DNA of 64,000 nucleotides from an uncultured Peptoniphilaceae bacterium (GTDB taxonomy: Bacteria; Bacillota; Clostridia; Tissierellales; Peptoniphilaceae): NCBI GenBank assembly GCA_964432945.1, contig CAYSPO010000001.1, forward strand, positions 21,506 to 85,505. The letters run 5' to 3'. The first letter of the stretch is position 1. Each line of letters starts with the position of its first letter. This document shows positions 4,427 to 33,485 of this stretch, in pieces. The notes beneath the pieces were generated by a model. The model made no database searches. It saw only the letters and a program-made list of their open reading frames with translations, and was not told where the DNA came from. The position numbers and the translations under genes are program-made.

Positions 4427-5154
4427 TTTGGTTAATTGGCGGGACTAGTGAAGCTAAACAATTTGTGGATAAGTTTCCTATGTCAGAAAAATTAATAGTA
4501 AGTGTTACTACAAACTATGGAGCGTCTTTAATTAAAGACTGTAAAGTAAAAATATCTGCTATGGATTACGAAGAAATGAAAGAATTTGTAGAGGAAAATA
4601 ACATCAGTGGAATCATAGATATGTCCCATCCATTTGCAGAAATAGTAACAAGTAATGCTCAAAAAATATCTAAGGACATGAAAATTAAATACCTTAGATA
4701 CATAAGACCTATTACCTCTAAGGCTGATTATAGTTTTAAAGAAATGAAAGAATTTGAAAAGTTTTCTAAAGAGAATAAAGGTACATATTTCATTACCGTT
4801 GGAAGTAAAATGATTGGGGAACTTGAAAGTATAAAAAACAAGAATAGATTTATTTATAGGATTCTTCCAATGACTAAAAGTATAGAAATTTGTAGAAAAT
4901 ATAATATTAAATTAGAGGATATTGTTTGTATGAAAGGACCTTTTTCTTTAGATATGAATATAGCTTTTCTAAAAGAATTTTCTGCTGATTATATGCTTAT
5001 GAAAGATAGTGGAGAAGCTGGAGGAATGGAAGCTAAGTTAGGAGCTTGTGAAAAATTAGGAATAAATTCTTTAGCTTTTACCAGAAAATCAGAAGAAGGA
5101 ATACAAGATATAGATGAACTTATATACAAAGCTATTGTTCTATTAGGAGAATAG
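4423..5154 (+). CDS. cbiJ: cobalt-precorrin-6A reductase CbiJ
   Basis: TTG start overlaps the cbiH stop (TTGA). Has N-terminal LIGGTSEA and MKDSGEAGG motifs of the CobK/CbiJ family. Confidence 0.8.
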   Translation: MIWLIGGTSEAKQFVDKFPMSEKLIVSVTTNYGASLIKDCKVKISAMDYEEMKEFVEENNISGIIDMSHPFAEIVTSNAQKISKDMKIKYLRYIRPITSKADYSFKEMKEFEKFSKENKGTYFITVGSKMIGELESIKNKNRFIYRILPMTKSIEICRKYNIKLEDIVCMKGPFSLDMNIAFLKEFSADYMLMKDSGEAGGMEAKLGACEKLGINSLAFTRKSEEGIQDIDELIYKAIVLLGE

Positions 5155-5158
5155 GAAA

Positions 5159-5836
5159 ATGTATATTCCAATAATGTTAAAAGTAAAAAATAAAAAAGTT
5201 AAAGTTTTTGGGGGAGGGCCTGTTGCTTATAGAAAATCTAAGAAATTTTTAGATGAAGGAGCAGAAGTAACAGTTATAAGCCCTGATTTTATAAAAAAAT
5301 TTGAAGATATAAAAGATTTTTGTATAAAAAGACCTTACAAGAAAAGTGATTTACTAGATATAGATATAGTTATAGCTGCCACTAATGATAGAAATATAAA
5401 CTTAGAAATTTCATCTTACTGCGAGGATAAAGGTATTCTTGTTAATGTTGCAGACTCTAAAGAAGAGTCCAGCTTCATACTACCTTCAAAAATAGATACA
5501 GGTGGTTTAGTAATTTCTTTTTCTACATTAGGAAAATATCCAGCATTATCTAGGTCTTTAAGAATGGAATTAGAAGATAAGTTTTCAATTTATGATAAAG
5601 AATATTTAGATTTATTAGAATTATATAGGCAAAAAATATTAAAAGAAAACCCTGAAAATAAGCTGGAGCTTCTTAGACAGGCACTAACTTATAGTAAGGG
5701 GGAAATTGAAAATTTGCTATATTTAATATTTTATAATATAGATGGGAATGAGGTTAGAATCCTCAGCAGCCCCGCTACTGTATTACTGAGCAAACCTAGA
5801 TATGCCACTGAAAGGGAAGGCCTAGGTAAGCTTTGA
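5159..5836 (+). CDS. precorrin-2 dehydrogenase / sirohydrochlorin ferrochelatase (SirC / CysG N-terminal type)
   Basis: Rossmann motif VFGGGPVAYRKSKKFLDEGAEVTVISP and AATNDRNIN resemble the siroheme-synthase N-terminal domain. The last ~30 codons read into the riboswitch aptamer. Confidence 0.7.
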   Translation: MYIPIMLKVKNKKVKVFGGGPVAYRKSKKFLDEGAEVTVISPDFIKKFEDIKDFCIKRPYKKSDLLDIDIVIAATNDRNINLEISSYCEDKGILVNVADSKEESSFILPSKIDTGGLVISFSTLGKYPALSRSLRMELEDKFSIYDKEYLDLLELYRQKILKENPENKLELLRQALTYSKGEIENLLYLIFYNIDGNEVRILSSPATVLLSKPRYATEREGLGKL

Positions 5837-5870
5837 CGTTAAGCCAGGACACCAGAATTCTTCGGAGGGA
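5735..5870 (+). promoter_or_regulatory. cobalamin (B12) riboswitch upstream of cbiMNQO
   Basis: Conserved blocks are present: GGGAAUGAGGUUAGAAUCCUC, GCCCCGCUACUGUA, GCCACUG, GGGAAGGC, and the B12 box AAGCCAGGACACC. The downstream CUUCUCCU (5882..5889) could pair with the cbiM RBS AGGAGGG (5901..5907). Confidence 0.85.
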
Positions 5871-5911
5871 AGTATATTTACTTCTCCTAGCAAAAATAAT
5901 AGGAGGGAAAA

Positions 5912-6637
5912 ATGAAGAAAAAAGCTAAAAAATTATTAAAAGTTTATGTGTTATTAGCTGTCATTTTATTGCCAACAATGGCAGGAGCTATGCACATAAT
6001 GGAAGGATATCTACCAAAGGTACATTCATTAATTTGGTCATTGATTTCACTTCCATTTGTAATCTACGGTGCAAAGAGTGCATCAAAAGTAACAAAGGAG
6101 TACCCTGATAAAAAGCTATTACTAGCAATGGCAGGTGCTTTTACATTTTTATTATCATCATTAAAAATACCATCAGTAACAGGATCTTGTTCTCATCCAA
6201 CTGGTATAGGTTTTGGAGCAATTATATTTGGGCCAGGACCGATGTTTATAATTGGAGTTATTGTTTTATTATTCCAAGCTTTGTTATTAGCTCATGGAGG
6301 AATTACAACTCTTGGAGCAAATACTTTTTCAATGGCTATTGTTGGTTCTCTAGTTTCTTATGGACTATTTAAGTCACTGAAAAAAACAGGAATAAATGAA
6401 TATGTAAATGTATTTATTGCTGTAACTCTAGGAAATCTTGCAACTTATGCAACAACTGCTCTGCAATTAGCAATAGCTTTTCCAGCAGGAAATTTTGCAG
6501 GTGAATTAGTTAAGTACCTTTCAATATTTGCTCTAACCCAAGTTCCTATTGCAATAGTAGAAGGTTTATTATCTACTTTAATTTATGAAAGAGTTAAGAA
6601 ATATGACGGTGGAGGTTTATTATATGAAAACATCTAG
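5912..6637 (+). CDS. cbiM: cobalt ECF transporter substrate-capture component CbiM
   Basis: After the signal-like N-terminus there is an MHIMEGYLP motif. Polytopic membrane protein, followed by cbiN/Q/O. Confidence 0.9.
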   Translation: MKKKAKKLLKVYVLLAVILLPTMAGAMHIMEGYLPKVHSLIWSLISLPFVIYGAKSASKVTKEYPDKKLLLAMAGAFTFLLSSLKIPSVTGSCSHPTGIGFGAIIFGPGPMFIIGVIVLLFQALLLAHGGITTLGANTFSMAIVGSLVSYGLFKSLKKTGINEYVNVFIAVTLGNLATYATTALQLAIAFPAGNFAGELVKYLSIFALTQVPIAIVEGLLSTLIYERVKKYDGGGLLYENI

Positions 6638-6908
6638 TAAGGTAATAATTATAATTTTAATCCTAGCAATTATAATTGCTCCGCTTTATCTGCTTCCAGA
6701 TGCAGATTTCGAAGGAGCAGATGATGAAGGTATGGACACTCTTGCTGAAAATAACCCAGAATATGAAGCATGGGCAGAACCATTTATTGAACCAGCTAGT
6801 GGGGAAATAGAATCACTTTTATTTGCCAGCCAAGCAGCTCTAGGAGCATCTGTAATTGGATATTATTTTGGAGTAAGTAAAGGTAAAAGAAATGTTGAAG
6901 ATAGATAA
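6624..6908 (+). CDS. cbiN: cobalt transport protein CbiN
   Basis: Small two-TM protein. I prefer ATG 6624, preceded by GGAGG, over the track start 6585. Confidence 0.8.
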   Translation: MKTSSKVIIIILILAIIIAPLYLLPDADFEGADDEGMDTLAENNPEYEAWAEPFIEPASGEIESLLFASQAALGASVIGYYFGVSKGKRNVEDR

Positions 6909-7569
6909 ACTTGCCTATGAGAATAATTTATTTAAAATTAGGCCAAGTTTAAAAGTGGGCATGAGTATGTTATTACTCATGCTCTCTATTATTATAGACA
7001 ATAATTTTATTAAGTTTAATATAGTATTATTAAATATTTTAGTTTGTATAGTTTTTGCTAAAATTCCTTTTTTAGAATATTTGAAGTTATATAGAATACC
7101 TTTAGTTTTTCTTATATTAGGTCTGGTTAGTATGATTTTATCAATAAGTAAAGACAACAGGGACTATATATTTTCCTTTAATGTTTTTAATTTTTATCTT
7201 GGAGTCTCTGAGAATTCTCTGATTAATGGATTTAACACTTTTATTAGGTCTATTTCAGCATTAAGTTCTACCTATTCTTTGATATTAACTACTCCAATTA
7301 ACCAGCTTATTAATTTTCTGAAATCCATAAAATTTCCTATTATAATTACTGAACAGCTACTGCTTATATACAGATTTATAAATGTATTTTTAGAAGAACT
7401 AGAAAAAATGAAAATAGCAATGGAGTTAAAGCAAGGATATGGTAAAAAGAAAAATTGGATAAAAAGTCTTTCTCTTATAGGAAGTTCATTGTTTATAAAA
7501 ATAATGAATTCTTTTAAGGATTATTCTTTAACACTTGAACTTAAACACTTTAATGGAGACTTTTATTAG
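6892..7569 (+). CDS. cbiQ: cobalt ECF transporter T component CbiQ
   Basis: Polytopic membrane protein of about 225 aa between cbiN and the ECF ATPase. Overlaps the cbiN end. Confidence 0.8.
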   Translation: MLKIDKLAYENNLFKIRPSLKVGMSMLLLMLSIIIDNNFIKFNIVLLNILVCIVFAKIPFLEYLKLYRIPLVFLILGLVSMILSISKDNRDYIFSFNVFNFYLGVSENSLINGFNTFIRSISALSSTYSLILTTPINQLINFLKSIKFPIIITEQLLLIYRFINVFLEELEKMKIAMELKQGYGKKKNWIKSLSLIGSSLFIKIMNSFKDYSLTLELKHFNGDFY

Positions 7570-7577
7570 GTGATTTT

Positions 7578-8393
7578 ATGATAGAGATTAAAAACTTGTG
7601 CTTTAAATATGACAATGGATATGAAGCTTTAAAAAATATTAATATGGAAATTAAAGAAGGACAAATTATCGGACTTATTGGAGAGAACGGATCTGGTAAA
7701 TCAACTCTTTTCCTTTCTATCCTAGGAATTAACAAAAAATCTCAAGGTGATATTTTATTCAGAGGTGAAAGTATCTCTTACAAGAAAACTTTTATGAGAG
7801 ATTATAGAAAAAAAGTAAATATGGTATTGCAAGATCCAGACAAACAAATATTTTATTCTGATGTCTATTCAGATATAGCCTTTGGACTTAAAAATTTAGG
7901 ATTAAGCGATAATGAGATTAAAAAAAGAGTAAATTCATCTTTGGAAGATTTAGAAATAAGTAATTTGAAAGATAAGGCTGTTCATTACTTAAGCTATGGC
8001 CAAAAGAAACGGCTTACGATTGCAGGGGTATTAGCTATGAATCCAGAGCTTATTCTATTAGATGAGCCTACAGCAGGCCTAGACCCTAGGCTTACCAAAC
8101 AGATGGTTAAAACCATTAAAAAATTAAAAGATAATAGTAAAACTATTTTAGTTTCATCTCATGATATGGATTTTATTTATGAAGTTTGTGACTATATATA
8201 TGTTATCAATAAAGGACAAATTATTAGTAATGGAAAGCCAGAAGAAGTTTTTATAGATGAAGAAAAAATTATATCTGCAGGTTTAAGTTTACCAATGTTA
8301 GTTAAACTCCATGTTAATACAAATTTACCTCTTTTTAAAGATGAAGATAGACTTTATAAATATATAAATAAATATAAAAATAATAATCAGTAA
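7578..8393 (+). CDS. cbiO: cobalt ECF transporter ATPase CbiO
   Basis: Walker A GENGSGKST, signature LSYGQKKR, Walker B LILLDEPTAGLD. Confidence 0.85.
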   Translation: MIEIKNLCFKYDNGYEALKNINMEIKEGQIIGLIGENGSGKSTLFLSILGINKKSQGDILFRGESISYKKTFMRDYRKKVNMVLQDPDKQIFYSDVYSDIAFGLKNLGLSDNEIKKRVNSSLEDLEISNLKDKAVHYLSYGQKKRLTIAGVLAMNPELILLDEPTAGLDPRLTKQMVKTIKKLKDNSKTILVSSHDMDFIYEVCDYIYVINKGQIISNGKPEEVFIDEEKIISAGLSLPMLVKLHVNTNLPLFKDEDRLYKYINKYKNNNQ

Positions 8394-10072: not shown

Positions 10073-10576
10073 ATGGATCTTAAAAAGCTAAAAATTAAAA
10101 ATATATTACTAGTTATATTTGCTATAGGAGTGTTATATATAGGATTTACCAGCTTTAATACTGGAACAGAAGATGACGTAGTGGATATAGGTGTATCTGA
10201 AGATAATGAATTATTGAAGTATTTTAGAAAAAGCTATCCTGATTATGAGGTTCTCAAAGCTGGTGAAGAAGATGTAGATGCAAATGGATTTAATGATCTA
10301 GTTGTTATTTATAATATTTCAAGAGATAAGCTAGGTTACCCTACAAAAAACGAAATGTTAGTTATATTAAATAATAATGGTGTTTATGAAATGACTCAAT
10401 CTACAAGAGCACCTATTGAAAAACATGTAATACAGTTTCAAAACATTGAAAATGATGATAGGTATGAAATAACAGTCTCTGGTTCAAAAAGAGGGCAATA
10501 TGGTTTTGGTATATATGAAATAAAAGACAATGCTCTTGTGAATATATATGGTGAAGGAATGGAAAAATGCTGATAG
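10073..10576 (+). CDS. membrane-anchored protein ending in Cys-Sec-COOH (TGA 10571..10573 read as selenocysteine, real stop TAG 10574..10576)
   Basis: Has an N-terminal TM helix. It is a paralogue of 15355..15897, and both end ...GEGM(E/D)xC with the identical hexamer context TGC-TGA-TAG. A hairpin follows in the 3' UTR. This may correspond to the family I recall being named 'Cys-Cys-COOH (seleno)protein SaoC'; I cannot verify that here. Confidence 0.7.
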
Positions 10577-10585
10577 AAAATATGT

Positions 10586-10602
10586 ATGCTTAGGATAAGC
10601 AT
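10586..10602 (+). promoter_or_regulatory. candidate SECIS hairpin (3' of TGA 10571)
   Basis: ATGCTTA-GGA-TAAGCAT, starting 15 nt after the TGA. The apical loop contains GG. Confidence 0.5.
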
Positions 10603-10650
10603 GAATAAGAAAACTTTATATAAGAATAAAAAATTAAAATGATACAATCG

Positions 10651-10681
10651 TTGGGTTAAAGTCGACTTTAATGTTTATACT
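10651..10681 (+). promoter_or_regulatory. MerR-type promoter/operator P1
   Basis: TTGGGT (-35), a 19-nt spacer, then TATACT (-10). The perfect 16-bp palindrome TTAAAGTCGACTTTAA (10656..10671) lies inside the spacer. Confidence 0.6.
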
Positions 10682-10696
10682 TAGAAGGAGGTGAAT

Positions 10697-11248
10697 ATGA
10701 TGAAAATCAAAGATGTAAGTGAATTGACAGGTTTAGCTGGATCCACTATAAGATATTATGATAGCTTAGGACTATTAGGTCCTATAGATAGATTATCAAA
10801 TAATTATAGAAAATTCAATAAACATGATGTAGATATACTTAATTTTATCTCTGAGTCTAGAGATCTTGGTTTTTCTCTTGCCGAAGTTAAAGAAATTTTG
10901 CAAATGAAAAATAGCGGTAAAGAGCCATGTGCGTATGTTGAGAATAAGATTAAGGAAAAAATTACCTTAATAGATGAACATATAAAAGATTTGGAAAAGA
11001 AAAGAGTTGAACTTAACAAGCACTTAGAAATTGGACATTCTGTTTGTGGTTGTCATGGTAATGTTTGTCATTATATTGAAGGCTTAGTTGGAGTAGAAGA
11101 GGAGGATTCATCGACTTGTTCCTGTGGGTGTGAAGAAGAAATAGAGAAATCATCAGGATGTTCTTGTGGATGTGAAGAAGAAACTGAGTTAGACAATTCT
11201 TGTTCATCAAAGAATTCTTCTAAAAACAAGGGTTGTAGCTGCTGTTAG
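10697..11248 (+). CDS. MerR-family metal-responsive transcriptional regulator with a Cys-rich C-terminal tail
   Basis: HTH MKIKDVSELTGLAGSTIRYYDSLGLL. Cys residues in EPCAY and VCGCHGNVCH sit at positions comparable to the three metal-ligand cysteines of MerR. The tail has SCGCEEE repeats and ends GCSCC. Start is ATG 10697 or 10700, after AAGGAGG. Confidence 0.85.
   Translation: MMKIKDVSELTGLAGSTIRYYDSLGLLGPIDRLSNNYRKFNKHDVDILNFISESRDLGFSLAEVKEILQMKNSGKEPCAYVENKIKEKITLIDEHIKDLEKKRVELNKHLEIGHSVCGCHGNVCHYIEGLVGVEEEDSSTCSCGCEEEIEKSSGCSCGCEEETELDNSCSSKNSSKNKGCSCC
11117..11188 (+). repeat. tandem 42-nt-period coding repeat (CSCGCEEExE twice) in the regulator tail
   Basis: TGTTCCTGTGGGTGTGAAGAAGAAATAGAG (11117..11146) and TGTTCTTGTGGATGTGAAGAAGAAACTGAG (11159..11188). 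Confidence 0.8.
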
Positions 11249-11279
11249 GCTGAATTACTTATCTTACCTATAGAAAGTT

Positions 11280-12080
11280 GTGATTATGGGAAAAATAAAG
11301 ATAGAGAATTTCAGAAATTTTATCAATTTATTTTTAATAGCTATAATTATTGGACTATCTATAATAATTTTTAAAAATAATAATCCAAAAATAAAAGAAA
11401 ATAATAATAAGCCTGTAATCAGAATTGGTGCAGGTGATGATATATCAGGAATTGTTCTTGACTATATGCAGTCAGAAACTAATGAATTTAAGTTAGAACC
11501 TTATTTTATCAAAGATTGCTGAGCGACTACTTCTCAATGGGCATTGAGTAGTAATGCGTATTCTATGGCAATTGTTTGTAAAGATGCTGCAAAAAAGTAT
11601 ATAGACACAAGTCCTGATTTTGAAATTATAGGACCTGTAATTATGAATTCAGACATAGTTTTAGAGTCGACTAGAGATATTACAAGTGTAGGTATTACAA
11701 GTAAGAAAAGTTATCACAGAGATTTTGTTCGTGAATTATATGGTGAAGATGTTGAAATTATTGAGCTTATGCCTCAAAGTTTGCCATATGTTTATGAAAC
11801 AGCAAGAGTCGATGCAATAATAACTGATATAACAAAATTTACGAGTAACATAAAAGGAGAAGTGAAAAGTCCTAGTCAGGAAGATTATGTAACAAATATT
11901 TTAATAGCAAGAAGTGATTTTATTGGAACTAAAGAATATAAAGATTTTGTTAATAAATATAATGAAATCGTAAATGAACTAAATTCTGAAGGTCTTCCTA
12001 TTGATTATATAGAGAAAAAAACAAATTTAGATGAAGGGAGTTATGAGTATTGGAAAGTAAAGCTACTAACAATAAAGTAG
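11280..12080 (+). CDS. membrane-anchored ABC substrate-binding-like selenoprotein (Cys-Sec at TGC-TGA 11517..11522)
   Basis: Track ORFs 11280..11522 and 11544..12080 are in the same frame, separated only by the TGA and 7 sense codons. Joined length is about 266 aa with an N-terminal TM anchor. It lies directly upstream of the cognate permease and ATPase. A hairpin follows the TGA. Confidence 0.65.
11528..11553 (+). promoter_or_regulatory. candidate SECIS hairpin (3' of TGA 11520)
   Basis: TACT/AGTA plus CTCAAT/ATTGAG stems with one T-T mismatch. Apical loop is GGGC. Confidence 0.5.
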
Positions 12081-12847
12081 TCTCATTTTTTCAAGATGAG
12101 ACTACCAAACATACATTAGCAAGATTACTTACATATGGAACACTCATTTTAGTTTGGCATCTTTTAGCCACTTATATCGATATACCACTTGTTTTGCCCG
12201 CTCCATTAGATACATTAAGGGCTTTTATAGACAGTATCATCGATATTAAAGTTATGAGCAATGTTGGTATAACTTTAATGAGAGTTCTAAAGGGATGGGG
12301 ATTAGCCTTAGTCTTTGGAATACCTATCGGTATTGCAATGGGATTATCTCCTATTTTTGACAGTGTTTTTGGAGGTATAGTTAACTCTTTAAGACAAGTG
12401 CCAATGATGGCTTGGGTACCTCTTTCAATTATTTGGTTTGGAATTGGTGATGGTCCAACGTTATTTATGATTGCACTAAATGGAGTTTTCCAAATCATTA
12501 TGAATACATCTTCAGGTGTGGCTAATATTTCTGAAGATTATTATAATGCAGCCAAAAGCATGGGTGCTAGTAAACTAAGTATCTTTAAGAACATTATTAT
12601 CCCAGCAGCTCTACCAGATATGTTAACTGGAGCAAGATTAGCCATTGGAGCTGGCTGGATGTCTGTTATCTGAGCGGAGTTCATTGCGACAAGTGCCGGG
12701 CTCGGCTACGAAATGATAGAAGCACAATCTATGATGCAAACTAATAAACTTATAGCGTTAATGTTTTTAGCAGCATTTATAGGGTTTTTAATTGACAATG
12801 TAATACAATTTCTAAATAAGAAATTAACAAAATGGAGATATGTATAG
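12050..12847 (+). CDS. ABC transporter permease (NitT/TauT-SsuC type) with in-frame TGA 12671..12673 read as selenocysteine
   Basis: TTG start 9 nt after GAAGGGAG. After the TGA, 57 further sense codons (AEFIATSAGLGYEMIEAQ...LMFLAAFIGFLIDNVIQ...) run to TAG 12845..12847. They align residue-for-residue with the C-terminus of the paralogue at 30608..31453 (VAAEMLPGSMSGLGYLIAHA...IICIGLIGALFDAIYS). The next gene starts at 12848. Confidence 0.75.
12693..12709 (+). promoter_or_regulatory. candidate SECIS hairpin (3' of TGA 12671)
   Basis: A locally GC-rich hairpin, GTGCCG-GGCT-CGGC(T)AC, in an otherwise AT-rich gene. The loop contains GG. Confidence 0.45.
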
Positions 12848-13633
12848 ATGAAATTAGTTGTTGATAATTTATGTAAATCTTATTCGAATTCAGGAGAAGA
12901 TAATCATGTTTTAGAAAATATTAGCTTTTCAGTTGAAGAAGGAGAGGTTGTAACCCTTTTAGGTCCATCAGGATGTGGAAAGACAACAACTTTAACTATT
13001 ATAGCAGGTTTCAATGATTATGATTCAGGTCAAGTTTTATTAAATGGAGAATTAACAGACAAACCAGGTCCTAATAAGGGTTTTATGTTTCAAAACTATG
13101 CATTATTTCCTTGGATGACGGTAGAAGAAAATATTCGCTTTCCAATGAAGCAATTAAAATATGATAAAGAAAAAATCGATAAAAGAACTAAGTATTTATT
13201 AGATCTGGCTAGGTTGACTAAATACAAGGATTATTACCCTCATCAAATATCTGGGGGTATGAAACAAAGAAATTCTTTGGTGAGAGCATTAGCTCTTGAG
13301 CCAGAAATTTTATTGATGGATGAACCTCTTGGGGCTTTAGATATTGAAATGAGACAAAGTCTTCAAGATCAATTATTAGAAATATTTGATGATCTAAAAT
13401 TAACAGTAATAATAGTAACCCATGATGTGGAAGAAGCAATTTACTTGAGCGATAGAGTAATACTTATGTCCACAAATAAGGGTGAGATTATTTTGAACGA
13501 AAAAATAACTATGCCTCACCCAAGAAAAAGAAAAGATCCTCAATACCAACAATATGTAGATTTGTTATCAGAAAAGTTTATAGAAGCAAGTAAAAAAGGA
13601 GCACAAGCTCAAGGAAGTAGTGAAGATGAATAG
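12848..13633 (+). CDS. ABC transporter ATP-binding protein (NitT/TauT family)
   Basis: Walker A GPSGCGKTT, signature ISGGMKQR, Walker B LLMDEPLGALD. Confidence 0.9.
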   Translation: MKLVVDNLCKSYSNSGEDNHVLENISFSVEEGEVVTLLGPSGCGKTTTLTIIAGFNDYDSGQVLLNGELTDKPGPNKGFMFQNYALFPWMTVEENIRFPMKQLKYDKEKIDKRTKYLLDLARLTKYKDYYPHQISGGMKQRNSLVRALALEPEILLMDEPLGALDIEMRQSLQDQLLEIFDDLKLTVIIVTHDVEEAIYLSDRVILMSTNKGEIILNEKITMPHPRKRKDPQYQQYVDLLSEKFIEASKKGAQAQGSSEDE

Positions 13634-14270
13634 TAAAATAGATATTTCAGAAGTTCTTACACATGAAGATAATTTAACTTCAGATGAAAAGTTTTATAGA
13701 TTAAAAATTGTAGAAAAACTGGCAACAGAAGATAGACCTATTAGATTAAATGAGCTTCCAGAAATAAGCTCTCAAATGTATGAAATTCTCCACGACAAAG
13801 GAGCTATTGTATTAGATGAAAATAAAGAAAATATAATGTATGCTTACCCTGTTTCAGGGCCGCATACAAACCATGAAATTCATTTGGCAGATGGCAGGGT
13901 CTTTCATTCTATGTGTGCTATAGACTCTCTTGGCTCTACTTTTACCTTTGGACAAGATTTAACTATAAAATCTCAGTGTTCTACCAGTGGAAAAGAAGTT
14001 ATTGTAGAAATAGAGAATGGAAAAATTAAATCTACAAATGCTGATGATATTTATGCTATTCATGTTGATTTAAATGCATTTGAAGAATGGTCAGCTAGCT
14101 GCTGAAATGTTATGAATTTTTTCCGTGGGAAAGAAAACATGATTGAATATTACGAAGGAAATGAACTTGACGAAAAGACTAGCTTTGGTCTTGATTTAGA
14201 TACAGCATTTAAAGTAGGAAAAAAAGTTTTTAGTGTTGAACATACCTTATATGAATTTGTAGTTAAGTAA
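13620..14270 (+). CDS. organomercurial-lyase (MerB) family selenoprotein (Cys-Sec at TGC-TGA 14100..14105)
   Basis: FHSMCAIDSL matches MerB YAWCALDTL (Cys96/Asp99). SASC-U-NVMNFF matches MerB SFCCHVHFF (Cys159/Cys160). Reading through the TGA adds 54 codons to TAA 14268..14270, giving 216 aa, which is MerB-like length. Start is GTG 13620 or ATG 13626. Confidence 0.75.
14112..14140 (+). promoter_or_regulatory. candidate SECIS hairpin (3' of TGA 14103)
   Basis: ATG..TTTTTTCC-GTG-GGAAAGAA..CAT imperfect hairpin with a G-rich apex. Confidence 0.4.
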
Positions 14271-14281
14271 GGAGGGATTGG

Positions 14282-15352
14282 ATGTTTTTGTCATATATTA
14301 AAGAAATTTTACTCGCTTCATTAGATTTACTTAACGGTACATCCGCTTGGCTTATTGCAAGTTACCTTTTAGCAGGACTTACAAGAGATATAATTTCACC
14401 AGCTAGGCTGCAAAAGTCTTTAGGGAATACAAAAATATCCTCTATTATAAAATCTACATTACTAAGTATGTGTTTACCTGTATGTAGCTGTGGATCAGTT
14501 CCCTTAGGTATAAGTATGTATGAATCAGGGGCTTATGTCGGGCCAACCTTAGCATTTTTTGCAGGCTCTCCTATCTTAAATCCAGCTTCAATTATTTTGA
14601 GCTTTGGTTTGTTAGGTAAAGAAATCACTCTTATAAATATTGGAGCAGGTTTAATTTTACCTATTATAATCGGAGTTTTGGGAAATAAATTAGCTGGCGA
14701 TGAGCTTATGGATACCAAAATTCAAAAAGAGATAGAAAATATTAAAATTGAAAAAGATGAAAGATCTATTTTCTCAAAAATGAAATCAGGACTTAAATGG
14801 GTAAATAGTGAATTTGCTGTTAATTCTAGCAAATATATAGTTTTTGGTATGCTTTTTGGAGGGTTTTTATTAGTATCTTTTCCTCAAGCATTTATTCAAA
14901 AATATCTCGGTGATCCGGGAGTTATGACACTTTGGAATGTTGCACTTCTGGCTACTCTTATGTATGTATGTGCAGTAGGGCATATTCCTTTTATTGCAGC
15001 TTTGATAGCTAGTGGGGCATCCCCTGGAGCAGCTATAACATTTTTAATGGCAGGAGCAGCAACAAATATTCCAGAAATTATAAGTATAGGATCAATGATT
15101 GGTAAAAAAACAGCAGCCATCTATACTATTGTAATTAGTTCATTTTCTATGCTTGTAGGTATGATTACAAACAAGTTATTAATGCCTGGGTTTCAAAGGC
15201 AAATTGAATATGATGAAGTTGATAAAGCTATAAATACTGCTAATAGTCTTTTATTAAGTTTTCCTGATTGGGTTAAAAACTTATGTACTGCTATTGTAAT
15301 AATTTATTTTCTAAAGGCAATGTATAATTCTTTAATTAGAGATAGGATTTAA
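14282..15352 (+). CDS. polytopic permease, DUF318/ArsP-like family, CxC motif
   Basis: About 10 TM segments in a two-repeat architecture. Motif LPVCSCGSVPLG. Paralogue of 18162..19256 and more distantly of 46081..47121 (FCSCSSIP). Good RBS AGGAGGG. Confidence 0.8.
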   Translation: MFLSYIKEILLASLDLLNGTSAWLIASYLLAGLTRDIISPARLQKSLGNTKISSIIKSTLLSMCLPVCSCGSVPLGISMYESGAYVGPTLAFFAGSPILNPASIILSFGLLGKEITLINIGAGLILPIIIGVLGNKLAGDELMDTKIQKEIENIKIEKDERSIFSKMKSGLKWVNSEFAVNSSKYIVFGMLFGGFLLVSFPQAFIQKYLGDPGVMTLWNVALLATLMYVCAVGHIPFIAALIASGASPGAAITFLMAGAATNIPEIISIGSMIGKKTAAIYTIVISSFSMLVGMITNKLLMPGFQRQIEYDEVDKAINTANSLLLSFPDWVKNLCTAIVIIYFLKAMYNSLIRDRI

Positions 15353-15354
15353 CT

Positions 15355-15897
15355 ATGATTAATCTAGATAGGGAAAAGAGAATTATAAATATTTATTATA
15401 AGGAAAAGCTAGTTTTAACAATAGACGCAAGCTTAATGACTAAATTTTTTCTTACAGTAATAGTTATTCTAGTTGGTTATATAGGCTATATTCAAAACGC
15501 TAGTTTTAAAGAAGCAGATTTTGGAGTTGAAAAAGATAATCCACTTTTACTTTATTTTGAAGAAGAATTTCCTAATAATCCTGTTATCAAATGTAAATTA
15601 GGTGATGTAAATAACGATGGTAGAGATGATTTAATAGTTATTTACCAAATGCAGTTTCAAGATGGTAATGAATTGCGAGTGGTCTTTGATACAGATAATG
15701 GATATGAAGTTTCTAATCAAAATAGAGCTCCTTATGAAAACCAAACTATTGAATTAATTGATATAGATAATTCTCCTCCTATGGAATTTATTGCATCTGG
15801 CTCTAAAAGAGGAAGATATGGCTATGAGATTTATAGGGTTGATAATTCTACTCAGTTAGCCAGCGTCTTTGGAGAGGGAATGGATGTGTGCTGATAG
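15355..15897 (+). CDS. membrane-anchored protein ending in Cys-Sec-COOH (TGA 15892..15894 read as Sec, stop TAG 15895..15897)
   Basis: Paralogue of 10073..10576. They share blocks DVNNDGRDDLIVIY / DANGFNDLVVIY, SGSKRG(R/Q)YG and GEGM. Same TGC-TGA-TAG ending, with a downstream hairpin. Confidence 0.7.
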
Positions 15898-15906
15898 GTT
15901 TATAAA

Positions 15907-15922
15907 AAGTTCAGGTGAGCTT
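15907..15922 (+). promoter_or_regulatory. candidate SECIS hairpin (3' of TGA 15892)
   Basis: AAGTTC-AGGT-GAGCTT hairpin 13 nt after the TGA. The loop contains GGU. Confidence 0.45.
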
Positions 15923-15970
15923 ATATATAAGAAAATCTTATCCATTATAAATTAGCATAAGTAAATATTA

Positions 15971-16003
15971 TTAGACTATAAAGACGACTTTATAGTTTAT
16001 AAT
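15971..16003 (+). promoter_or_regulatory. second MerR-type operator/promoter P2
   Basis: ACTATAAAGACGACTTTATAGT (15975..15996) has core TAAAGACGACTTTA, matching 13 of 14 positions of the P1 core TAAAGTCGACTTTA. Its centre lies at the same distance from a -10 hexamer (TATAAT 15998..16003) as in P1. It could also fold as an RNA hairpin. Confidence 0.55.
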
Positions 16004-16075
16004 AATATTATGATATTGAGTATATATATATTCAACAAATAATGTTATACATAGGTAAAACTTTTAGGAGGAAAT

Positions 16076-17329
16076 ATGAAAAAGAAAGTATTAGCAAGCA
16101 TATTAGCTTGTACTCTTATTCTTTCATCTTTTACTGCTTGTAAAAACTCTGGAACATCATCTGTAGAAAAAATCGAATATGATCCTGTAGCAGAGCTTGA
16201 AAATTTCGAATTAAGAGAAATACCAGAAGCAGATAAAGATTTCAAAATTGAGATGGGCTATAATAACTGTGACCATATGGTTGGAGCTATTATAGGGGAA
16301 GAAGCAGGAATTTATGACGCTTTAGACTTAAATGTAAATGTAACTCAAACTAACAATACAAACATAGCTCAAGCCATGTCAACTAATGAAATGCAAGTTG
16401 GTTATATGGGAATTGACGGAGCAATAAGATCTCACAATGAAGGAGCACCTCTATTTATGAGTGCTGCAAATCATATTGGTGGATCAAGATACTTAGTAGC
16501 TTCTAATGATATTAAAAAGCCAGAAGATTTAATTGGTAAAACATTAGGAATTTCTCAAGATACAGCGAATAACCCAGAATGGTTACAATGGGCAAAAGAA
16601 TTAGGAATTCCAGCAGAAGCTGAAAACTATGAAATAGTAGAAATAGCACAAAAAGATGGACCTTTAGCTTTAAAAGCAGGACAAATAGATGCATTCGCTT
16701 GCTGTGATCCGTTTGCTTCACAATCAGAGCTTATGGAAGTTGGCCACATTATGGCAATAGGTTGGGGAACTGATGTAGAACAAGCTGAAAGTAATGATGC
16801 ATGGGGCATGTGCTGTATACATGCTATGAACCAAAACTTTGAAAAAGAACATCCAGAACTAGCTCAAAGACTTATGGTAGCTCATATATTAGCAGTTCAA
16901 TACTTATATGAACATCCATACAATGCGGCTATGATGTTTGCTGAAGGGTTTGGGACAACACCAGAAGTTGGTTTATTAACAGTATATATGAAGACTGTTG
17001 CTGAAGGTAGAACAATAACTTGGGAATTTGATGAAGAAAACCTTAAAAACTTCGTAAAAGAGTATGAAGATTGGAATGTTGATCCAGAGAAAATTCCTGA
17101 TTTAAGTAAAATAGAATCATTTATGGGTAAAAATATGCTTGAAGAAAGCAATATTATGCACTTTGAGGATTACCTAGAAGAATCAAATTTAGATGAAGTA
17201 TTCCCACTTGGAATGCCATTTGAAGATTGGTTAGCGAAAGCTAAAGCAATAGATGGTATTGATAATGAAATGGGTAATGATATTAAAGTTCCAGAAATTT
17301 ACCAAGAACAAGGATACTCAGCTAACTAA
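16076..17329 (+). CDS. ABC substrate-binding lipoprotein (NMT1/SsuA-like, NitT/TauT family)
   Basis: Signal peptide plus lipobox SSFTAC. About 417 aa and SsuA/NMT1-like (...GQIDAFACCDPFASQ...). Strong RBS AGGAGG. Confidence 0.75.
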   Translation: MKKKVLASILACTLILSSFTACKNSGTSSVEKIEYDPVAELENFELREIPEADKDFKIEMGYNNCDHMVGAIIGEEAGIYDALDLNVNVTQTNNTNIAQAMSTNEMQVGYMGIDGAIRSHNEGAPLFMSAANHIGGSRYLVASNDIKKPEDLIGKTLGISQDTANNPEWLQWAKELGIPAEAENYEIVEIAQKDGPLALKAGQIDAFACCDPFASQSELMEVGHIMAIGWGTDVEQAESNDAWGMCCIHAMNQNFEKEHPELAQRLMVAHILAVQYLYEHPYNAAMMFAEGFGTTPEVGLLTVYMKTVAEGRTITWEFDEENLKNFVKEYEDWNVDPEKIPDLSKIESFMGKNMLEESNIMHFEDYLEESNLDEVFPLGMPFEDWLAKAKAIDGIDNEMGNDIKVPEIYQEQGYSAN

Positions 17330-17340
17330 AAAATTAAAAT

Positions 17341-17369
17341 AATAGGATCATTTATGATCCTATTATTTT
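17341..17369 (+). terminator. rho-independent terminator
   Basis: AATAGGATCA-TTTA-TGATCCTATT followed by ATTTTG. Confidence 0.6.
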
Positions 17370-17466
17370 GTTATTATCAATTAGTATAAGAAATTTTTAT
17401 GATAAAGAATGATTATGCTTAATGAAATTAAACTATGCTAAAATATAGTAAGTAAGAGGAGTGTGT

Positions 17467-17730
17467 ATGAGAGATAAGGTTTTAGTGGAATTTATCAACA
17501 CTTGACCTAGTTGTGATTCACTTGGCAGGTCGGTTCAAGAAGTAGCATCACAATTTGGAGATAAGGTCGAGGTAAAGCTTTATTTCGCAGGAAAAGATGT
17601 TGAATATATTGCCAAATATGGAATGATATATTCAGGGACGATGATAATTAATGAAACTAAAAAAGTACAAAGACTTAGCAGATCTAATATTGAAAAAGAA
17701 ATTAGGGCTGCAGTAGAAGAAATTCAGTAA
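17467..17730 (+). CDS. small thioredoxin-fold selenoprotein with UxxC motif (TGA 17503..17505); not in the ORF track
   Basis: ATG 17467 follows AGAGGAG. Translation is MRDKVLVEFINT-U-PSCDSLGRSVQEVASQFGDKVEVKLYF...GTMIINE...EEIQ, 87 aa, stop TAA 17728..17730. It aligns with the CxxC protein at 45731..46069 (ILGSGCAKCKQLE...). A long hairpin follows the TGA. Confidence 0.7.
17511..17553 (+). promoter_or_regulatory. candidate SECIS hairpin (3' of TGA 17503)
   Basis: Outer stem TTGTGAT/ATCACAA and inner stem CTTG/CAAG. The apical region is GCAGGUCGGUU, which contains GGUC. Confidence 0.5.
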
Positions 17731-17747
17731 AATATTGGAGGTATTTA

Positions 17748-18080
17748 ATGAGAGTTGCTTACGTAATGGGTTCAGAAAATGCTAGAAAGACAGTTAGAGA
17801 TATGATAGTTCCACAAATGGAAGCAAGGGAACATGTTGCAGAAGTTGTAGCAATGTTTTTTACATATGACACAACTTTTATGCTGTTAAAAGATACTGAT
17901 CTTGGAAATAGACTTCAAAAGTTAGCTGATGAAAAAGGCTTGATGATAGTTGCTTGTGACCAATGTGTTATTGAAAGGGAAATTGATGATAAGCTTATTC
18001 CTGCAGCAAGTTTAGGATGCTTTCCAATGGTTTATGGAGCATTAAATAGTGCAGATATAGACCAAGTTATATCCATCTAA
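17748..18080 (+). CDS. DsrE/DsrF-like sulfur(selenium)-relay family protein
   Basis: 110 aa with a DsrE-like pattern (MRVAYVM..., IVACDQCV active-site-like Cys). RBS GGAGG. Confidence 0.6.
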   Translation: MRVAYVMGSENARKTVRDMIVPQMEAREHVAEVVAMFFTYDTTFMLLKDTDLGNRLQKLADEKGLMIVACDQCVIEREIDDKLIPAASLGCFPMVYGALNSADIDQVISI

Positions 18081-18098
18081 TCGGATTAATGTACTTGA

Positions 18099-18140
18099 AA
18101 TAAGCATCAATCTTAAATTAGATTGATGCTTATTATTTTT
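18099..18140 (+). terminator. rho-independent terminator
   Basis: 15-bp stem AATAAGCATCAATCT / AGATTGATGCTTATT followed by ATTTTT. Confidence 0.7.
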
Positions 18141-18161
18141 GCGAAATATGAGAGGTGAGAA

Positions 18162-19256
18162 GTGAATTTTATTAGAGAAGTAATTTTAACAGCATTAGAA
18201 CTATTAAACGGAACATCAACATGGATAGTAGTAAGTTACATAATAGCTGGACTACTTCATGATGTTATATCACCAGTAAGGTTTCAAAAAGGCTTAGGTA
18301 ATACTAAATTTTCTTCTATTGTAAAGGCAACCTTATCTGCTATGATTATTCCTATATGTAGCTGTGGATCTGTTCCTTTAGGAATCAGCTTATATTATTC
18401 GGGAGCTTATCTAGGGCCAACCCTAGCATTCTTAGCATCGAGCCCATTTTTAAATCCAGCAGCAATTATTATGAGTCTAGGACTTTTAGGTTGGGAGATA
18501 ACTTTAATTAATATAATAGCAGGGCTTTTCCTTCCTCTTTTAATAGGGGTAATTGGAAATAAAATAGGTGGAGATGAATTAAGAAAGCCTATGCTAGAAG
18601 AAGAAATAGTTAATATTTCTTTAGAAGAATCAGACGATAGAAGTCTTGTTGAAAAATTTAAATCAGGATTAATTTGGGTTTCTAATGATCTTGCATTAAC
18701 TTTAAGTAAATATACAGTCTTGGGAATGCTTTTAGGAGGATTGATATTATCTATTTTTCCAGAAAGCTTTATTCAAGAATATTTAGGTAATCCTTCATTA
18801 TTATCCTTGATGAATGTAGCAGTAATGGGAACGATAATGTATGTTTGTGCAGTAGGACATATTCCATTTATTGCAGCTTTAATAGTAAGCGGAGCATCTC
18901 CAGGCTCAGCTATTACTTTTTTAATGGCAGGAGCAGCAACAAATGTTCCAGAATTATATAGTATATATAAAATGATAGGAAAGAAAACAGCAGCTATATA
19001 TGGATTTATTGTAACAATTTATGCTTTTATTATCGGATATATCACAAACTTAATTTTAATGCCAGGATTTAAGCCAGTAGCTGATTTTTCTCAAGCAAAT
19101 AAATCGATTGAAATTGCAAACAGATTTCAATTTACAATTCCAGATCCAATTAACTGGATTTGTACAGTAATATTATTAATATTTTTTATAAAAAGTATTC
19201 GTCCATTTTTAGAAGATTTTGCTTACAAAATAAAAGGATTTTTTATAGAAGATTAA
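18162..19256 (+). CDS. polytopic permease, DUF318/ArsP-like family, CxC motif (paralogue 2)
   Basis: GTG start after GAGAGGTGAG. Motif IPICSCGSVPLG. Collinear and highly similar to 14282..15352. Confidence 0.8.
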   Translation: MNFIREVILTALELLNGTSTWIVVSYIIAGLLHDVISPVRFQKGLGNTKFSSIVKATLSAMIIPICSCGSVPLGISLYYSGAYLGPTLAFLASSPFLNPAAIIMSLGLLGWEITLINIIAGLFLPLLIGVIGNKIGGDELRKPMLEEEIVNISLEESDDRSLVEKFKSGLIWVSNDLALTLSKYTVLGMLLGGLILSIFPESFIQEYLGNPSLLSLMNVAVMGTIMYVCAVGHIPFIAALIVSGASPGSAITFLMAGAATNVPELYSIYKMIGKKTAAIYGFIVTIYAFIIGYITNLILMPGFKPVADFSQANKSIEIANRFQFTIPDPINWICTVILLIFFIKSIRPFLEDFAYKIKGFFIED

Positions 19257-26422: not shown

Positions 26423-27595
26423 TTATAACATTTCAATAAAAGCAGAAATTCTTGTTGCTAACTGACCTTTGTCATTATCTGAGTAATCAGTTTCTATTTT
26501 CATATAAGGAATTCCTAAGTCTTCTTTTATTCCTTTTTCCATTTTAACTGCTTCAATATTAAATGTATGGCAAGATTGTAAAACTACATCAATAACCCCA
26601 TCTACTTGATATTTTTCACAAAGGTGTTTTGTATGCTCTATTCTATCATCATTAGGAGACATAACAGCGCAGCTAATTTCTAGATATCTATCGGAAATTG
26701 CTCTTAAGATATCATCAGCCTCAGTATCTACCATCATTTTCATAGTTCTTTCTCCACCACAGTTATCGTTACTAACTATGATAGCACCATTTTGTTCAAT
26801 CACATTACATACCTTATCTATAACTCCTCCAGTTGGACAGCCTGTAACTAGAATTCTTGGGGTATTAGGAGCTACGAGATAATTAGGATCTTTGGAATAT
26901 TGTTCTAAGGCTTGATCGATTGTGTTGCTAACTAACTCCGTTGAGTCTTCAACGGTGAATTGAAAAACATTTCTTTGAAGTGAAAGTGCAACTTGGCTAC
27001 CTGTTATTGCGGGTGGATTATATCCTTGAATTTCCATTAACTTCACATAACCTTCTCTCCAAGCATTTCTTCTTTTAGCAGCATTTCTAAGGTCTTCATC
27101 AGTAATTTCTATATCAAATAATTCTTCCAATTTCTCTTTTAAAAGTTTACATTCTTCATACCATATATCCCTTGCATAAGACCTATTTTGTGCTTGGGGT
27201 AGTTGCATTATATGAACATCTTTTAATTCCCCAAGAAGTTCATACATTTTTTTCTTACCATCACAAGTAGTTTCACCGATAATTAAATCAGAGAACCAAG
27301 TATAAGGACAGGTTTCAGTATAAGCAAAACCATATGTACTTTTAATAAGGGGACACATATTTTTAGGAAGAACTTTTTCTGCATCAGGTATAACTGAATC
27401 AGAAGTCCCACATAGACCAACAGCTGAAGCTCCTGCTGCTTCTATAATTTCAGTAGGAGTATAGGAACAAAGAGTTCCAATTAGTCTGCCACCATTTTCT
27501 TTAAACTCTTTTACATTTACAAAGCCTTCCTTTCTAGCTTCTTCAAATTCTTCAAAAGTTTTAGGAAGTAGGGCTTTTTCTTTTACTTTTTCCAT
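26423..27595 (-). CDS. double-cubane-cluster / 2-hydroxyacyl-CoA dehydratase (HgdB/BcrB) family anaerobic reductase, copy 1
   Basis: 390 aa with Cys-rich motifs LCSYTP, GLCGTS, NMCPLIKS and GETTCDGKKK typical of this family. Paralogue of 32316..33485. Confidence 0.7.
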   Translation of the reverse strand: MEKVKEKALLPKTFEEFEEARKEGFVNVKEFKENGGRLIGTLCSYTPTEIIEAAGASAVGLCGTSDSVIPDAEKVLPKNMCPLIKSTYGFAYTETCPYTWFSDLIIGETTCDGKKKMYELLGELKDVHIMQLPQAQNRSYARDIWYEECKLLKEKLEELFDIEITDEDLRNAAKRRNAWREGYVKLMEIQGYNPPAITGSQVALSLQRNVFQFTVEDSTELVSNTIDQALEQYSKDPNYLVAPNTPRILVTGCPTGGVIDKVCNVIEQNGAIIVSNDNCGGERTMKMMVDTEADDILRAISDRYLEISCAVMSPNDDRIEHTKHLCEKYQVDGVIDVVLQSCHTFNIEAVKMEKGIKEDLGIPYMKIETDYSDNDKGQLATRISAFIEML

Positions 27596-31453: not shown

Positions 31454-31458
31454 ATAAT

Positions 31459-32315: not shown

Positions 32316-33485
32316 TTATAGCATCTCTATAAAAGCAGATATACGCGTAGTTAATTGACCTTTATCATTATCTGAGTAGTCAGTTTCTATTTTCATATAA
32401 GGAATTCCTAAATCTTCTTTAATTCCTTTTTCCATTCTAACTGCTTCTATATTAAAAGTATGGCAAGATTGTAAAACTACATCAATAACTCCATCAACTT
32501 CATATTTCTCGCAAAGCTCTTTTGTATGTTCCACTCTATTAGTGTTTGGAGACATAACAGCACAACTAATTTCAAGATACCTATCAGAAATTGCTCTTAA
32601 GATATCATCAGCTTCAGGATCTATCATCATATTCATAGTACGTTCACCGCCGCAATTATCATTACTTACAATAACTGCACCATTAGCTTCGATCACATTA
32701 CATACCTTGTCTATAACTCCACCAGTTGGGCAGCCTGTAACTAATATTCTTTTATTTGAAGGATCTACAGGATAGATTCCATTTTTATGATTTTCTAAAG
32801 CTTCTTCAATTGTATTATCTATTGTCTCTGTAACATCATTTACATCAAAACTGAATAGATTTTTTTGCATAGCTAGTGCAACTTCGCTACCAGTAATAGC
32901 AGGAGGATTCATTCCTTGAAGGGCAAATAATTTTTTATATGCTTCTCTTTGTTTATTTCTTTTTCTAACTGCTTCTCTTAAATCTTCATCAGTTATTTTT
33001 ATGTCATAAATATTTTCTAACTTTTCTTTTAGAAGCTTACATTCCTCATACCAAGCATCACTTGCCCATTCTCTATTTTGAGCTTGAGGTAATTGCATTA
33101 CATAAGTTTCTTTTATATCATTTAGAAGTTCATACATTTTTTTCTTTCCATCACAAGTAGTTTCACCTATGATTAAATCAGAAAACCAAGTATATGGGCA
33201 AGTTTCAGTATAAGCAAAGCCATATGTACTTTTGATAAGAGGACACATATTCTTAGGAAGAACTTTTTCTGCATCTGGAACAACCGCATTTGACGTACCA
33301 CAAAGCGCTACTCCAGAAGCTCCTGCTGCCTCTATAATTTCAAGAGGTGTATAAGAACAAAGGAAACCTACAACTCTTCCTCCATTTTCTTTGTATTCTT
33401 TTACATGAATAAATCCAGCTTGCCTAGCTTCTTCAAACTCATCAAAAGTCTTAGGTAAGACTTGTTTTTCTTTAACTTTATCCAA
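32316..33485 (-). CDS. double-cubane-cluster / HgdB-BcrB family anaerobic reductase, copy 2
   Basis: 389 aa, collinear with copy 1. The last ~55 residues are almost identical. Confidence 0.7.
   Translation of the reverse strand: MDKVKEKQVLPKTFDEFEEARQAGFIHVKEYKENGGRVVGFLCSYTPLEIIEAAGASGVALCGTSNAVVPDAEKVLPKNMCPLIKSTYGFAYTETCPYTWFSDLIIGETTCDGKKKMYELLNDIKETYVMQLPQAQNREWASDAWYEECKLLKEKLENIYDIKITDEDLREAVRKRNKQREAYKKLFALQGMNPPAITGSEVALAMQKNLFSFDVNDVTETIDNTIEEALENHKNGIYPVDPSNKRILVTGCPTGGVIDKVCNVIEANGAVIVSNDNCGGERTMNMMIDPEADDILRAISDRYLEISCAVMSPNTNRVEHTKELCEKYEVDGVIDVVLQSCHTFNIEAVRMEKGIKEDLGIPYMKIETDYSDNDKGQLTTRISAFIEML

Follow-up and report, generated by a model that had tools for sequence, protein, structure and literature searches.

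SaoL, a predicted selenocysteine-containing MerB-like lyase encoded in the SAO locus of an uncultured Peptoniphilaceae bacterium

The 64,000-nucleotide (nt) stretch of DNA analyzed here (the window; positions 21,506 to 85,505 of contig CAYSPO010000001.1, from an uncultured Peptoniphilaceae bacterium) contains a gene, saoL, whose reading frame is interrupted by a TGA codon. Our analyses led us to conclude, with considerable confidence, that the product of this gene is a selenocysteine (Sec)-containing MerB-like carbon-metal lyase of the SAO system, the lyase activity being a prediction from the sequence. The SAO system and the SaoL family have been described (Haft & Gwadz, bioRxiv 10.1101/2022.07.06.499078; J Bacteriol 2023), and nothing is new in the family itself, its Sec, the operon or the functional hypothesis, all of which are already published and in NCBI models. 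The NCBI annotation pipeline already names SaoL and reads through its UGA, and a 2026 review includes SaoL among the known prokaryotic selenoproteins; a 2008 paper on the Global Ocean Sampling selenoproteome mentions no MerB-like selenoprotein. Clostridioides difficile, C. botulinum and Brachyspira all conserve the SAO system, whose biochemistry remains of interest.

As listed, the saoL open reading frame (ORF) runs from 13620 to 14105 on the forward strand and stops at the TGA of 14103-14105, immediately after TGC (Cys). Past this TGA, the frame stays open for 54 further codons to a TAA at 14268-14270. Two strings that a preliminary description of this DNA had quoted, FHSMCAIDSL and SASC-TGA-NVMNFF, were both found in the translation. 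That description had also given the read-through product 216 amino acids (aa), and the frame does continue past the TGA to a MerB-like size; however, GTG 13620 is a less likely start than ATG 13626, and the full-length protein is probably 214 aa rather than the 216 aa that would result from the GTG. The shorter length was preferred because a Shine-Dalgarno-like AAGGAAG (13611-13617) is situated 8 nt ahead of ATG 13626, and because gene calls for the same protein in databases (P0001, 159 aa) begin at the Met of that codon. Residues are numbered below on the 216-aa version, and those of the 214-aa version are 2 lower (Cys97/99, Asp100/102, Sec160/162).

When Sec was written as Cys, SaoL matched the Pfam MerB family (PF03243) with an E-value of 8.6e-22 and 77.9 bits, against a gathering score of 27. 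The match extended over SaoL residues 81-204 and profile positions 4-125 of 126, with the TGA lying within it. The curated equivalog model for “MerB-like organometallic lyase SaoL” (NCBIfam NF040728) gave 145.8 bits (cutoff, 140) and aligned SaoL residues 17-161 with profile positions 5-159 of 159. On the two equivalog models for true MerB, NF033555 and NF009710, SaoL scored far below the cutoffs (36.7 bits versus 200, and 41 bits versus 193, respectively). The closest solved structures by phmmer were MerB2 (5c17, E = 3.3e-10) and MerB R831b (1s6l, E = 0.011). An AlphaFold2 (AF2) model was made of a proxy orthologue (P0005) that has W at the Sec position, from a shallow alignment of truncated sequences, and it was poor, with a predicted local distance difference test score (pLDDT) of 57.8. 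The ten best PDB matches to this poor model in Foldseek were all MerB or MerB2, at template modeling (TM) scores of only 0.2-0.4 and without residue mapping. The PF03243 and phmmer matches agree with the MerB-family membership that had been claimed in the preliminary description.

Relatives of SaoL were sought in one genome per species, which returned 51 loci, and each was translated in frame. A C-TGA-N was present at the homologous position in 31 of the 51, which upheld the earlier placement of a Cys-Sec dipeptide (CU) at the C-terminal active-site position. The orthologues came from Firmicutes, Spirochaetes, Deltaproteobacteria and one actinobacterial metagenome-assembled genome (MAG), and the taxa included Peptoniphilaceae, Johnsonella, Brachyspira, Syntrophomonadaceae, and Syntrophobacter and other Deltaproteobacteria. 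The nearest named species were Lagierella, Parvimonas and Johnsonella at 42-49% identity (full-length tblastn against the genome collection), and the best partial match was 57%. For alignment we used 29 sequences, namely the window protein and the products of 28 CU-type loci, after frameshifted and 5'-truncated copies had been set aside. Entered as a separate row of a multiple sequence alignment, the 54-residue stretch after the TGA (14106-14267) was misaligned, and that row was left out. Six positions were invariant in 29/29: C99, D102, C120, C161, TGA162 and N163, of which C99, D102 and C120 correspond to Cys96, Asp99 and Cys117 of MerB. The motif surrounding the Sec site was W-x-x-x-C-U-N-x-M-N-F-F, and mean identity to the window protein was 0.40 downstream of the TGA versus 0.37 upstream. 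The conservation of the Cys96 and Asp99 equivalents was therefore as had been claimed, and the sequence beyond the TGA was also conserved across the 29 sequences; a lack of either had been named beforehand as a finding that would speak against the assignment.

Several of the related loci had irregular copies of the gene. The saoL of Brachyspira alvinipulli ATCC 51933 (L028) is frameshifted directly after C-U-N, that of a Lagierella MAG (L007) is frameshifted, and that of Mediannikoviicoccus vaginalis (L030) is truncated ahead of the CU; each of these may be an assembly error or a pseudogene. In Lagierella and Parvimonas (L001, L003-L005 and L009; at about 10600-10627 of the locus), a second in-frame TGA is situated two codons before the TAA or TAG (SEVLK-TGA-GAA-stop), and this second TGA is probably the true stop. 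Gene callers using genetic code 4 gave 208-aa products for these genes, with W at both TGAs (P0005).

MerB cleaves carbon-mercury bonds by protonolysis using Cys96, Asp99 and Cys159, and the Hg(II) is then handed to MerA. In the preliminary description, the Cys-Sec pair of SaoL had been equated with the Cys159/Cys160 pair of MerB, and a profile alignment to characterized MerB had been called for to determine which of the two is Sec. We therefore aligned a hidden Markov model (HMM) of the 29 sequences, in which Sec was masked as X, with MerB R831b. The alignment was ungapped and put SaoL S160 on Ser157, C161 on Phe158, Sec162 on Cys159, N163 on Cys160, and F167 and F168 on Phe164 and Phe165, so the proposed pairing was not borne out. 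A gapped phmmer alignment that had placed CC on CC proved to be an artifact of writing U as C. The lone active-site Cys165 of MerB2 (5c17) also falls on the Sec of SaoL, as does the lone Cys of alphaproteobacterial MerB-like proteins (S-L-C-T-V). The same register is found in a published structural superposition that puts SaoL Cys99, Asp102 and Sec162 on MerB Cys96, Asp99 and Cys159 (Haft & Gwadz, bioRxiv 10.1101/2022.07.06.499078). As judged from these alignments, SaoL is a MerB-superfamily domain with a full catalytic set, Sec at the position of Cys159 and an extra adjacent Cys. Given this register, selenium is predicted to take the place of the essential catalytic thiol, Cys159, and not of the dispensable Cys160, and the vicinal pair of SaoL is, by alignment, shifted one residue N-terminally relative to Cys159/Cys160 of MerB. 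This placement of Sec at Cys159 was confirmed by an alignment in which Sec did not have to be entered as Cys, and may be useful to those who study the SAO system.

A hairpin resembling a selenocysteine insertion sequence (SECIS) follows the saoL TGA. It has an upper stem of 8 base pairs (bp), formed by 14117-14124 with 14128-14135, and a GUG loop (14125-14127) that is 22-24 nt after the U of the UGA. Hairpins were predicted at the same position in most orthologues despite their differing sequences (e.g., UUUCUUC-UGUAC-GAAGAAA, CGCCUUC-UGUGC-GAAGGCG and UUCUUUG-GUU-CAAAGAA), and the consensus fold of the orthologues had compensatory double changes in 4/6 pairs. Rfam, searched at gathering thresholds across the window, gave no match to a SECIS family and only two cobalamin riboswitches. 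At least five ordinary genes of the window terminate in TGA, with further stops straight after. Because TGA is the normal stop of these genes, we consider that the genetic code is standard and that the TGA of saoL is, on sequence grounds, a recoding site.

Two other explanations of this codon were considered. If the TGA were a genuine stop, the product would be a MerB-like protein cut short at 159 aa, with an unrelated or remnant ORF of 52 codons behind it, as in a pseudogene or split gene, and most database gene calls do end at the TGA (lengths of 157-159 aa). However, a protein of that length would lack both the end of the MerB domain and the residue equivalent to Cys159. Moreover, the TGA is conserved across phyla together with the in-frame sequence after it (29 sequences, 40% identity), the hairpin after the TGA is conserved, and similar in-frame TGAs at Cys-aligned positions are found in five other genes of the locus. 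These observations made a genuine stop extremely improbable. We give almost no credence to the second explanation, that TGA in this organism stands for Trp or Gly (genetic code 4 or 25) and the residue is not Sec. Some metagenome gene callers gave SaoL products of 208-214 aa with W at the TGA, but TGA terminates ordinary genes in this window and the TGA position aligns with Cys in homologues that are not recoded. The latter include MerB (Cys159), the alphaproteobacterial proteins (S-L-C-T-V) and an actinobacterial relative (L044) that has Cys-Cys at the columns of C161 and Sec162; a CC orthologue of SaoL has also been reported in Jonquetella (Haft & Gwadz, bioRxiv 10.1101/2022.07.06.499078). 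We consider it most likely that the UGA at 14103-14105 is decoded as selenocysteine, helped by the downstream hairpin.

The preliminary description had proposed that co-occurrence with the neighboring genes be checked. For this, the Sao proteins of the window were used in tblastn searches of the 51 relative loci, and neighbors were counted within 10 kb. About 25 of the 31 loci with CU-type SaoL carry SaoB, SaoP, SaoA, SaoE, SaoC and SaoX within that distance, and most also have SaoD and SaoT. In contrast, SAO neighbors were found at 0/19 of the intact loci that have Cys instead of TGA in their MerB-like gene. Several of these Cys-type loci have MerR-like genes, and L038 is followed by a MerA-like reductase ending in CCAG. 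CU-type loci without SAO neighbors were L015, L019, L022, L023 and L031. Two of these, L022 and L031, are short contigs, whereas L015, L019 and L023 have full 10-kb flanks yet are without SAO genes; the saoL of L015 is a 5'-truncated copy, and L019 and L023 are deltaproteobacterial loci. Only part of the SAO set was present in L002, a contig of 7.4 kb, and in L030 the truncated SaoL has no CU motif left yet is inside a full SAO locus. On an HMM of the SaoL clade, relatives without Sec scored 50-113 bits and MerB R831b scored 36 bits. Taken together, these counts and scores indicated that SaoL forms a clade of its own, linked to the SAO neighborhood and to Sec.

SaoL of the window closely resembles the published members of its family. 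In SaoL of C. difficile 630 (WP_238476746.1, CU at 161-162), the CU is likewise about 50 residues before the C-terminus, and published SaoL and window SaoL have the same Cys, Asp, structural Cys and C-U-N-x-M-N-F-F. Published SAO loci have the same nine-family neighborhood with double-cubane reductases nearby, and only details of the locus differ; a link between SAO loci and double-cubane proteins has been reported, as has the presence of SaoL in 45 of 52 SAO loci, with 44 of those being selenoproteins (Haft & Gwadz, bioRxiv 10.1101/2022.07.06.499078).

The likeness to MerB proper is more distant. MerB R831b (EC 4.99.1.2; PDB 1S6L, 3F0P) is of the same Pfam family and of similar length to SaoL, and its Cys96, Asp99, Cys117 and Cys159 all have equivalents in SaoL (Cys159 as Sec). 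The two differ in that Cys159 is Sec, Phe158 is Cys and Cys160 is Asn in SaoL, and their similarity is low (the phmmer E-value of 0.011 given above), with SaoL failing the MerB equivalog cutoffs; C. difficile SaoL is <15% identical to MerB R831b (Haft & Gwadz, bioRxiv 10.1101/2022.07.06.499078). In addition, SaoL is encoded beside an importer and without a MerA/T/P context, whereas MerB proper belongs to a resistance operon. The best solved relative, MerB2 of Bacillus megaterium (PDB 5C17), aligns without gaps around the site with its single Cys165 on the SaoL Sec; however, it has Ser (“CAIS”) at the position of the catalytic Asp of SaoL and MerB, and is without Sec or a vicinal Cys. The MerB-like proteins of Alphaproteobacteria and Actinomycetota (L032-L051) share MCAIDALG and a C-terminal x-C-x-V-M-x-F-F with SaoL and reach 80-113 bits on the HMM of the SaoL clade, but have Cys rather than Sec and no SAO neighbors, and some are beside MerA and MerR.

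The position of saoL, between an uptake-type ATP-binding cassette (ABC) transporter with Sec in both binding protein and permease and an ArsP/SO_0444-type exporter, is suggestive of its function. The published model consists of import by SaoB/X-P-A, cleavage by SaoL, Cys/Sec carriers and efflux by SaoE (Haft & Gwadz, bioRxiv 10.1101/2022.07.06.499078). As the neighborhood suggests, the Sec-containing ABC importer SaoB/X-SaoP-SaoA would bring the substrate in. If SaoL works as MerB does, its thiol and selenol would then bind the metal(loid) of the carbon-bound substrate, its Asp would protonate the leaving carbon to release a hydrocarbon (protonolysis), and the metal would stay chelated on SaoL until handed on. 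From the gene content, the released metal could pass to the thiol/selenol carriers SaoC, SaoT and SaoD for efflux by SaoE, and control of the locus by a metal sensor of the MerR type is probable. The preliminary description had proposed either a non-mercury substrate or hand-off of the product and its export by the adjacent permease; both ideas are reasonable and coincide with the published hypothesis.

We also considered whether SaoL could be a true organomercurial lyase in mercury resistance, with Sec for Cys159 and the SAO locus an unusual mer operon. The MerB catalytic residues are all kept in SaoL, a MerR-family regulator is inside the locus, and the Cys/Sec-rich carriers and efflux pump resemble the logic of metal detoxification. 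However, SaoL has low scores on the MerB equivalog models, an uptake-type ABC transporter with binding proteins makes no sense for mercury resistance, and the SAO regulator favors CueR, CadR and ZntR models over MerR while being below every cutoff. SAO is also chromosomal and housekeeping-like, being found in 98% of C. difficile genomes (Haft & Gwadz, bioRxiv 10.1101/2022.07.06.499078). Finally, the scanned ORFs of at least 150 aa in the window included no MerT, no MerP and no pyridine-nucleotide disulfide oxidoreductase such as MerA, whose absence had been pointed out in the preliminary description; the 1-8.4 kb block was judged solely by the Pfam labels of a nearly identical contig. The missing MerA/T/P, the presence of an importer and the failed MerB equivalog cutoffs argue against classical mercury resistance, and we regard this explanation as quite improbable. 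Mercury may be the metal trafficked by SAO.

Another possibility, which we judged to be very improbable, is that SaoL is a non-catalytic metal(loid) carrier or chaperone, in which a MerB fold with a Cys, Cys-Sec site holds a soft metal on its way from the importer to the exporter. MerB holds its Hg(II) product tightly and, from MerB biochemistry and the reasoning of Haft & Gwadz, a Cys-Sec pair would bind it tighter; SaoL is also missing from 7/52 SAO loci (bioRxiv 10.1101/2022.07.06.499078). However, the proton-donor Asp is invariant (29/29), which would be expected for catalysis and is needless for binding alone.

Several points weigh against the assignment of SaoL as a Sec-containing lyase of the SAO system. 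Our literature searches turned up no experiments on a Sao protein, whether on Sec insertion, lyase activity, substrate or metal. Our AF2 proxy model was poor, so the active-site geometry rests on the sequence alignment and the published model. The statistics of the single-sequence hairpin are modest (z about -2), and its 5' arm falls in the conserved NFF codons. The genes selA, selB, selC (tRNA-Sec) and selD were not found in the window, and the Sec capacity of the organism was inferred from the six recoded genes of the locus. In addition, SaoA and SaoD, though best hits to their models, are 5 and 7 bits below the curated cutoffs.

Table 1. Features of saoL, the surrounding SAO locus and the double-cubane reductases in the window (NCBIfam scores in bits).
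Feature	Position	Strand	Basis
saoC copy 1, ends TGC-TGA-TAG (Cys-Sec-COOH), hairpin after	10073..10576	+	NF040734 141.9 vs cutoff 80
MerR/CueR-family metal-responsive regulator, Cys-rich C-terminal tail	10691..11248	+	regulator-model scores below cutoff
saoB, predicted substrate-binding selenoprotein, CU motif at TGA 11520-11522	11286..12080	+	NF040727 214.2 vs cutoff 140
saoP, predicted ABC permease selenoprotein, Sec at TGA 12671-12673	12050..12847	+	NF040733 375.9 vs cutoff 295
saoA, ABC ATPase	12848..13633	+	NF040729 355 vs cutoff 360; best hit by a wide margin
saoL, predicted MerB-like organometallic lyase selenoprotein, probably 214 aa	13626..14270	+	NCBIfam NF040728; Pfam MerB spanning the TGA
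Cys-Ala-Ile-Asp codons of saoL (C99, D102 = MerB Cys96, Asp99)	13914..13925	+	alignments; both invariant 29/29
TGC-TGA of saoL, predicted Cys161-Sec162 dipeptide (Sec = MerB Cys159, Cys = MerB Phe158)	14100..14105	+	masked-Sec profile alignment, orthologues
SECIS-like hairpin, 6-40 nt after the saoL TGA	14109..14143	+	fold -9.7 kcal/mol, z about -2
saoE copy 1, ArsP-family efflux permease	14282..15352	+	NF040736 485.4 vs cutoff 325; Pfam ArsP_1
saoC copy 2, ends TGC-TGA-TAG (Cys-Sec-COOH), hairpin after	15355..15897	+	NF040734 150.3 vs cutoff 80
saoX, substrate-binding lipoprotein	16076..17329	+	NF040735 459.9 vs cutoff 300
saoT, predicted thioredoxin-like selenoprotein, U-P-S-C, TGA 17503-17505	17467..17730	+	NF040730 125.4 vs cutoff 65
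saoD, DsrE-related protein	17748..18080	+	NF040732 161.9 vs cutoff 169
saoE copy 2	18162..19256	+	NF040736 506.3 vs cutoff 325
Double-cubane-cluster anaerobic reductase	26423..27595	-	NF040772 489.6 vs cutoff 350
Second double-cubane-cluster anaerobic reductase	32316..33485	-	NF040772 494.9 vs cutoff 350

The NCBIfam scan identified nine SAO families, all in one co-directional block (10073-19256, + strand) with the order saoC-(merR-like)-BPAL-E-C-X-T-D-E, saoC and saoE each being duplicated (Table 1). The ArsP-like permease that had been noticed adjacent to saoL is SaoE copy 1, directly downstream. Six of the sao genes have a TGA-Sec codon (both copies of saoC, saoB, saoP, saoL and saoT), which makes the locus unusually Sec-rich. 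Each saoC end (10568-10576 and 15889-15897) is followed by a hairpin of 6-8 bp, with its G-rich loop roughly 20 nt beyond the UGA. SaoC ending in Cys-Sec-COOH was reported in only 3/52 species (Haft & Gwadz, bioRxiv 10.1101/2022.07.06.499078), and here it occurs twice in one locus.

The regulator gene at 10691-11248 encodes a protein with higher scores on the CueR, CadR and ZntR models than on MerR, though under the cutoff for all, and a tail in which CSCGCEEE is repeated before a terminal GCSCC. Homologues with 46-49% identity adjoin SAO loci in Lagierella, Parvimonas and Mediannikoviicoccus (L001, L003-L005, L007, L009 and L030), and the word MerR is absent from the text of the SAO paper by Haft & Gwadz. 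The presence of this regulator inside the locus, in Peptoniphilaceae relatives too, could make it a tractable handle on the metal that induces SAO. The traits specific to the SAO locus of the window are minor, namely the six Sec genes, the two Cys-Sec-COOH SaoC, the duplicated saoC and saoE, and the embedded MerR/CueR-like regulator. We speculate, while considering it unlikely as a whole, that this lineage has the most Sec-saturated form of SAO (six Sec genes and two Cys-Sec-COOH SaoC paralogues), with duplicated exporters and a previously undescribed poly-Cys MerR-type sensor whose metal could reveal the SAO metal(loid), and that SaoL cleaves a bond between carbon and an element other than Hg (e.g., As, Se/Te, Sn or Co).

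Elsewhere in the window, the two double-cubane reductases bracket an aminotransferase and a second ABC transporter, of SsuA/TauT type (29160-32232). The permease and ATPase of this transporter scored best on the SaoP and SaoA models, below cutoff, and have no in-frame TGA. A third, more distant ArsP_1-family permease (46081-47121, - strand) gave 116 bits on the SaoE model. We considered the methyltransferase gene at 25437-26093 as a possible seventh selenoprotein gene and rejected it, as its match to the MduS model NF045649 is limited to the N-terminal part, positions 5-214 of 338 (224.8 bits versus a cutoff of 380). The frame downstream of it is full of stops, and it seems to be without the Sec-bearing C-terminal part of the MduS double-selenoprotein.

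Just upstream of the SAO locus are cobalamin biosynthesis and CbiMNQO cobalt-uptake genes (151-8393) with a cobalamin riboswitch (5695-5874). A link between SAO and cobalamin or cobalt was discarded, as no related SAO locus has CbiM or CbiQ in its flanks, and the adjacency of the cbi genes was judged to be coincidental. The second cobalamin riboswitch is ahead of a corrinoid methyltransferase cluster (49062-56924) that includes several URO-D/MtaA-like genes, a B12-binding protein, a RACo activator and CobW. Lastly, a gene at 40240-41979 (+ strand) encodes a cell-wall-anchored protein with three CWB2 repeats and two rhodanese domains.

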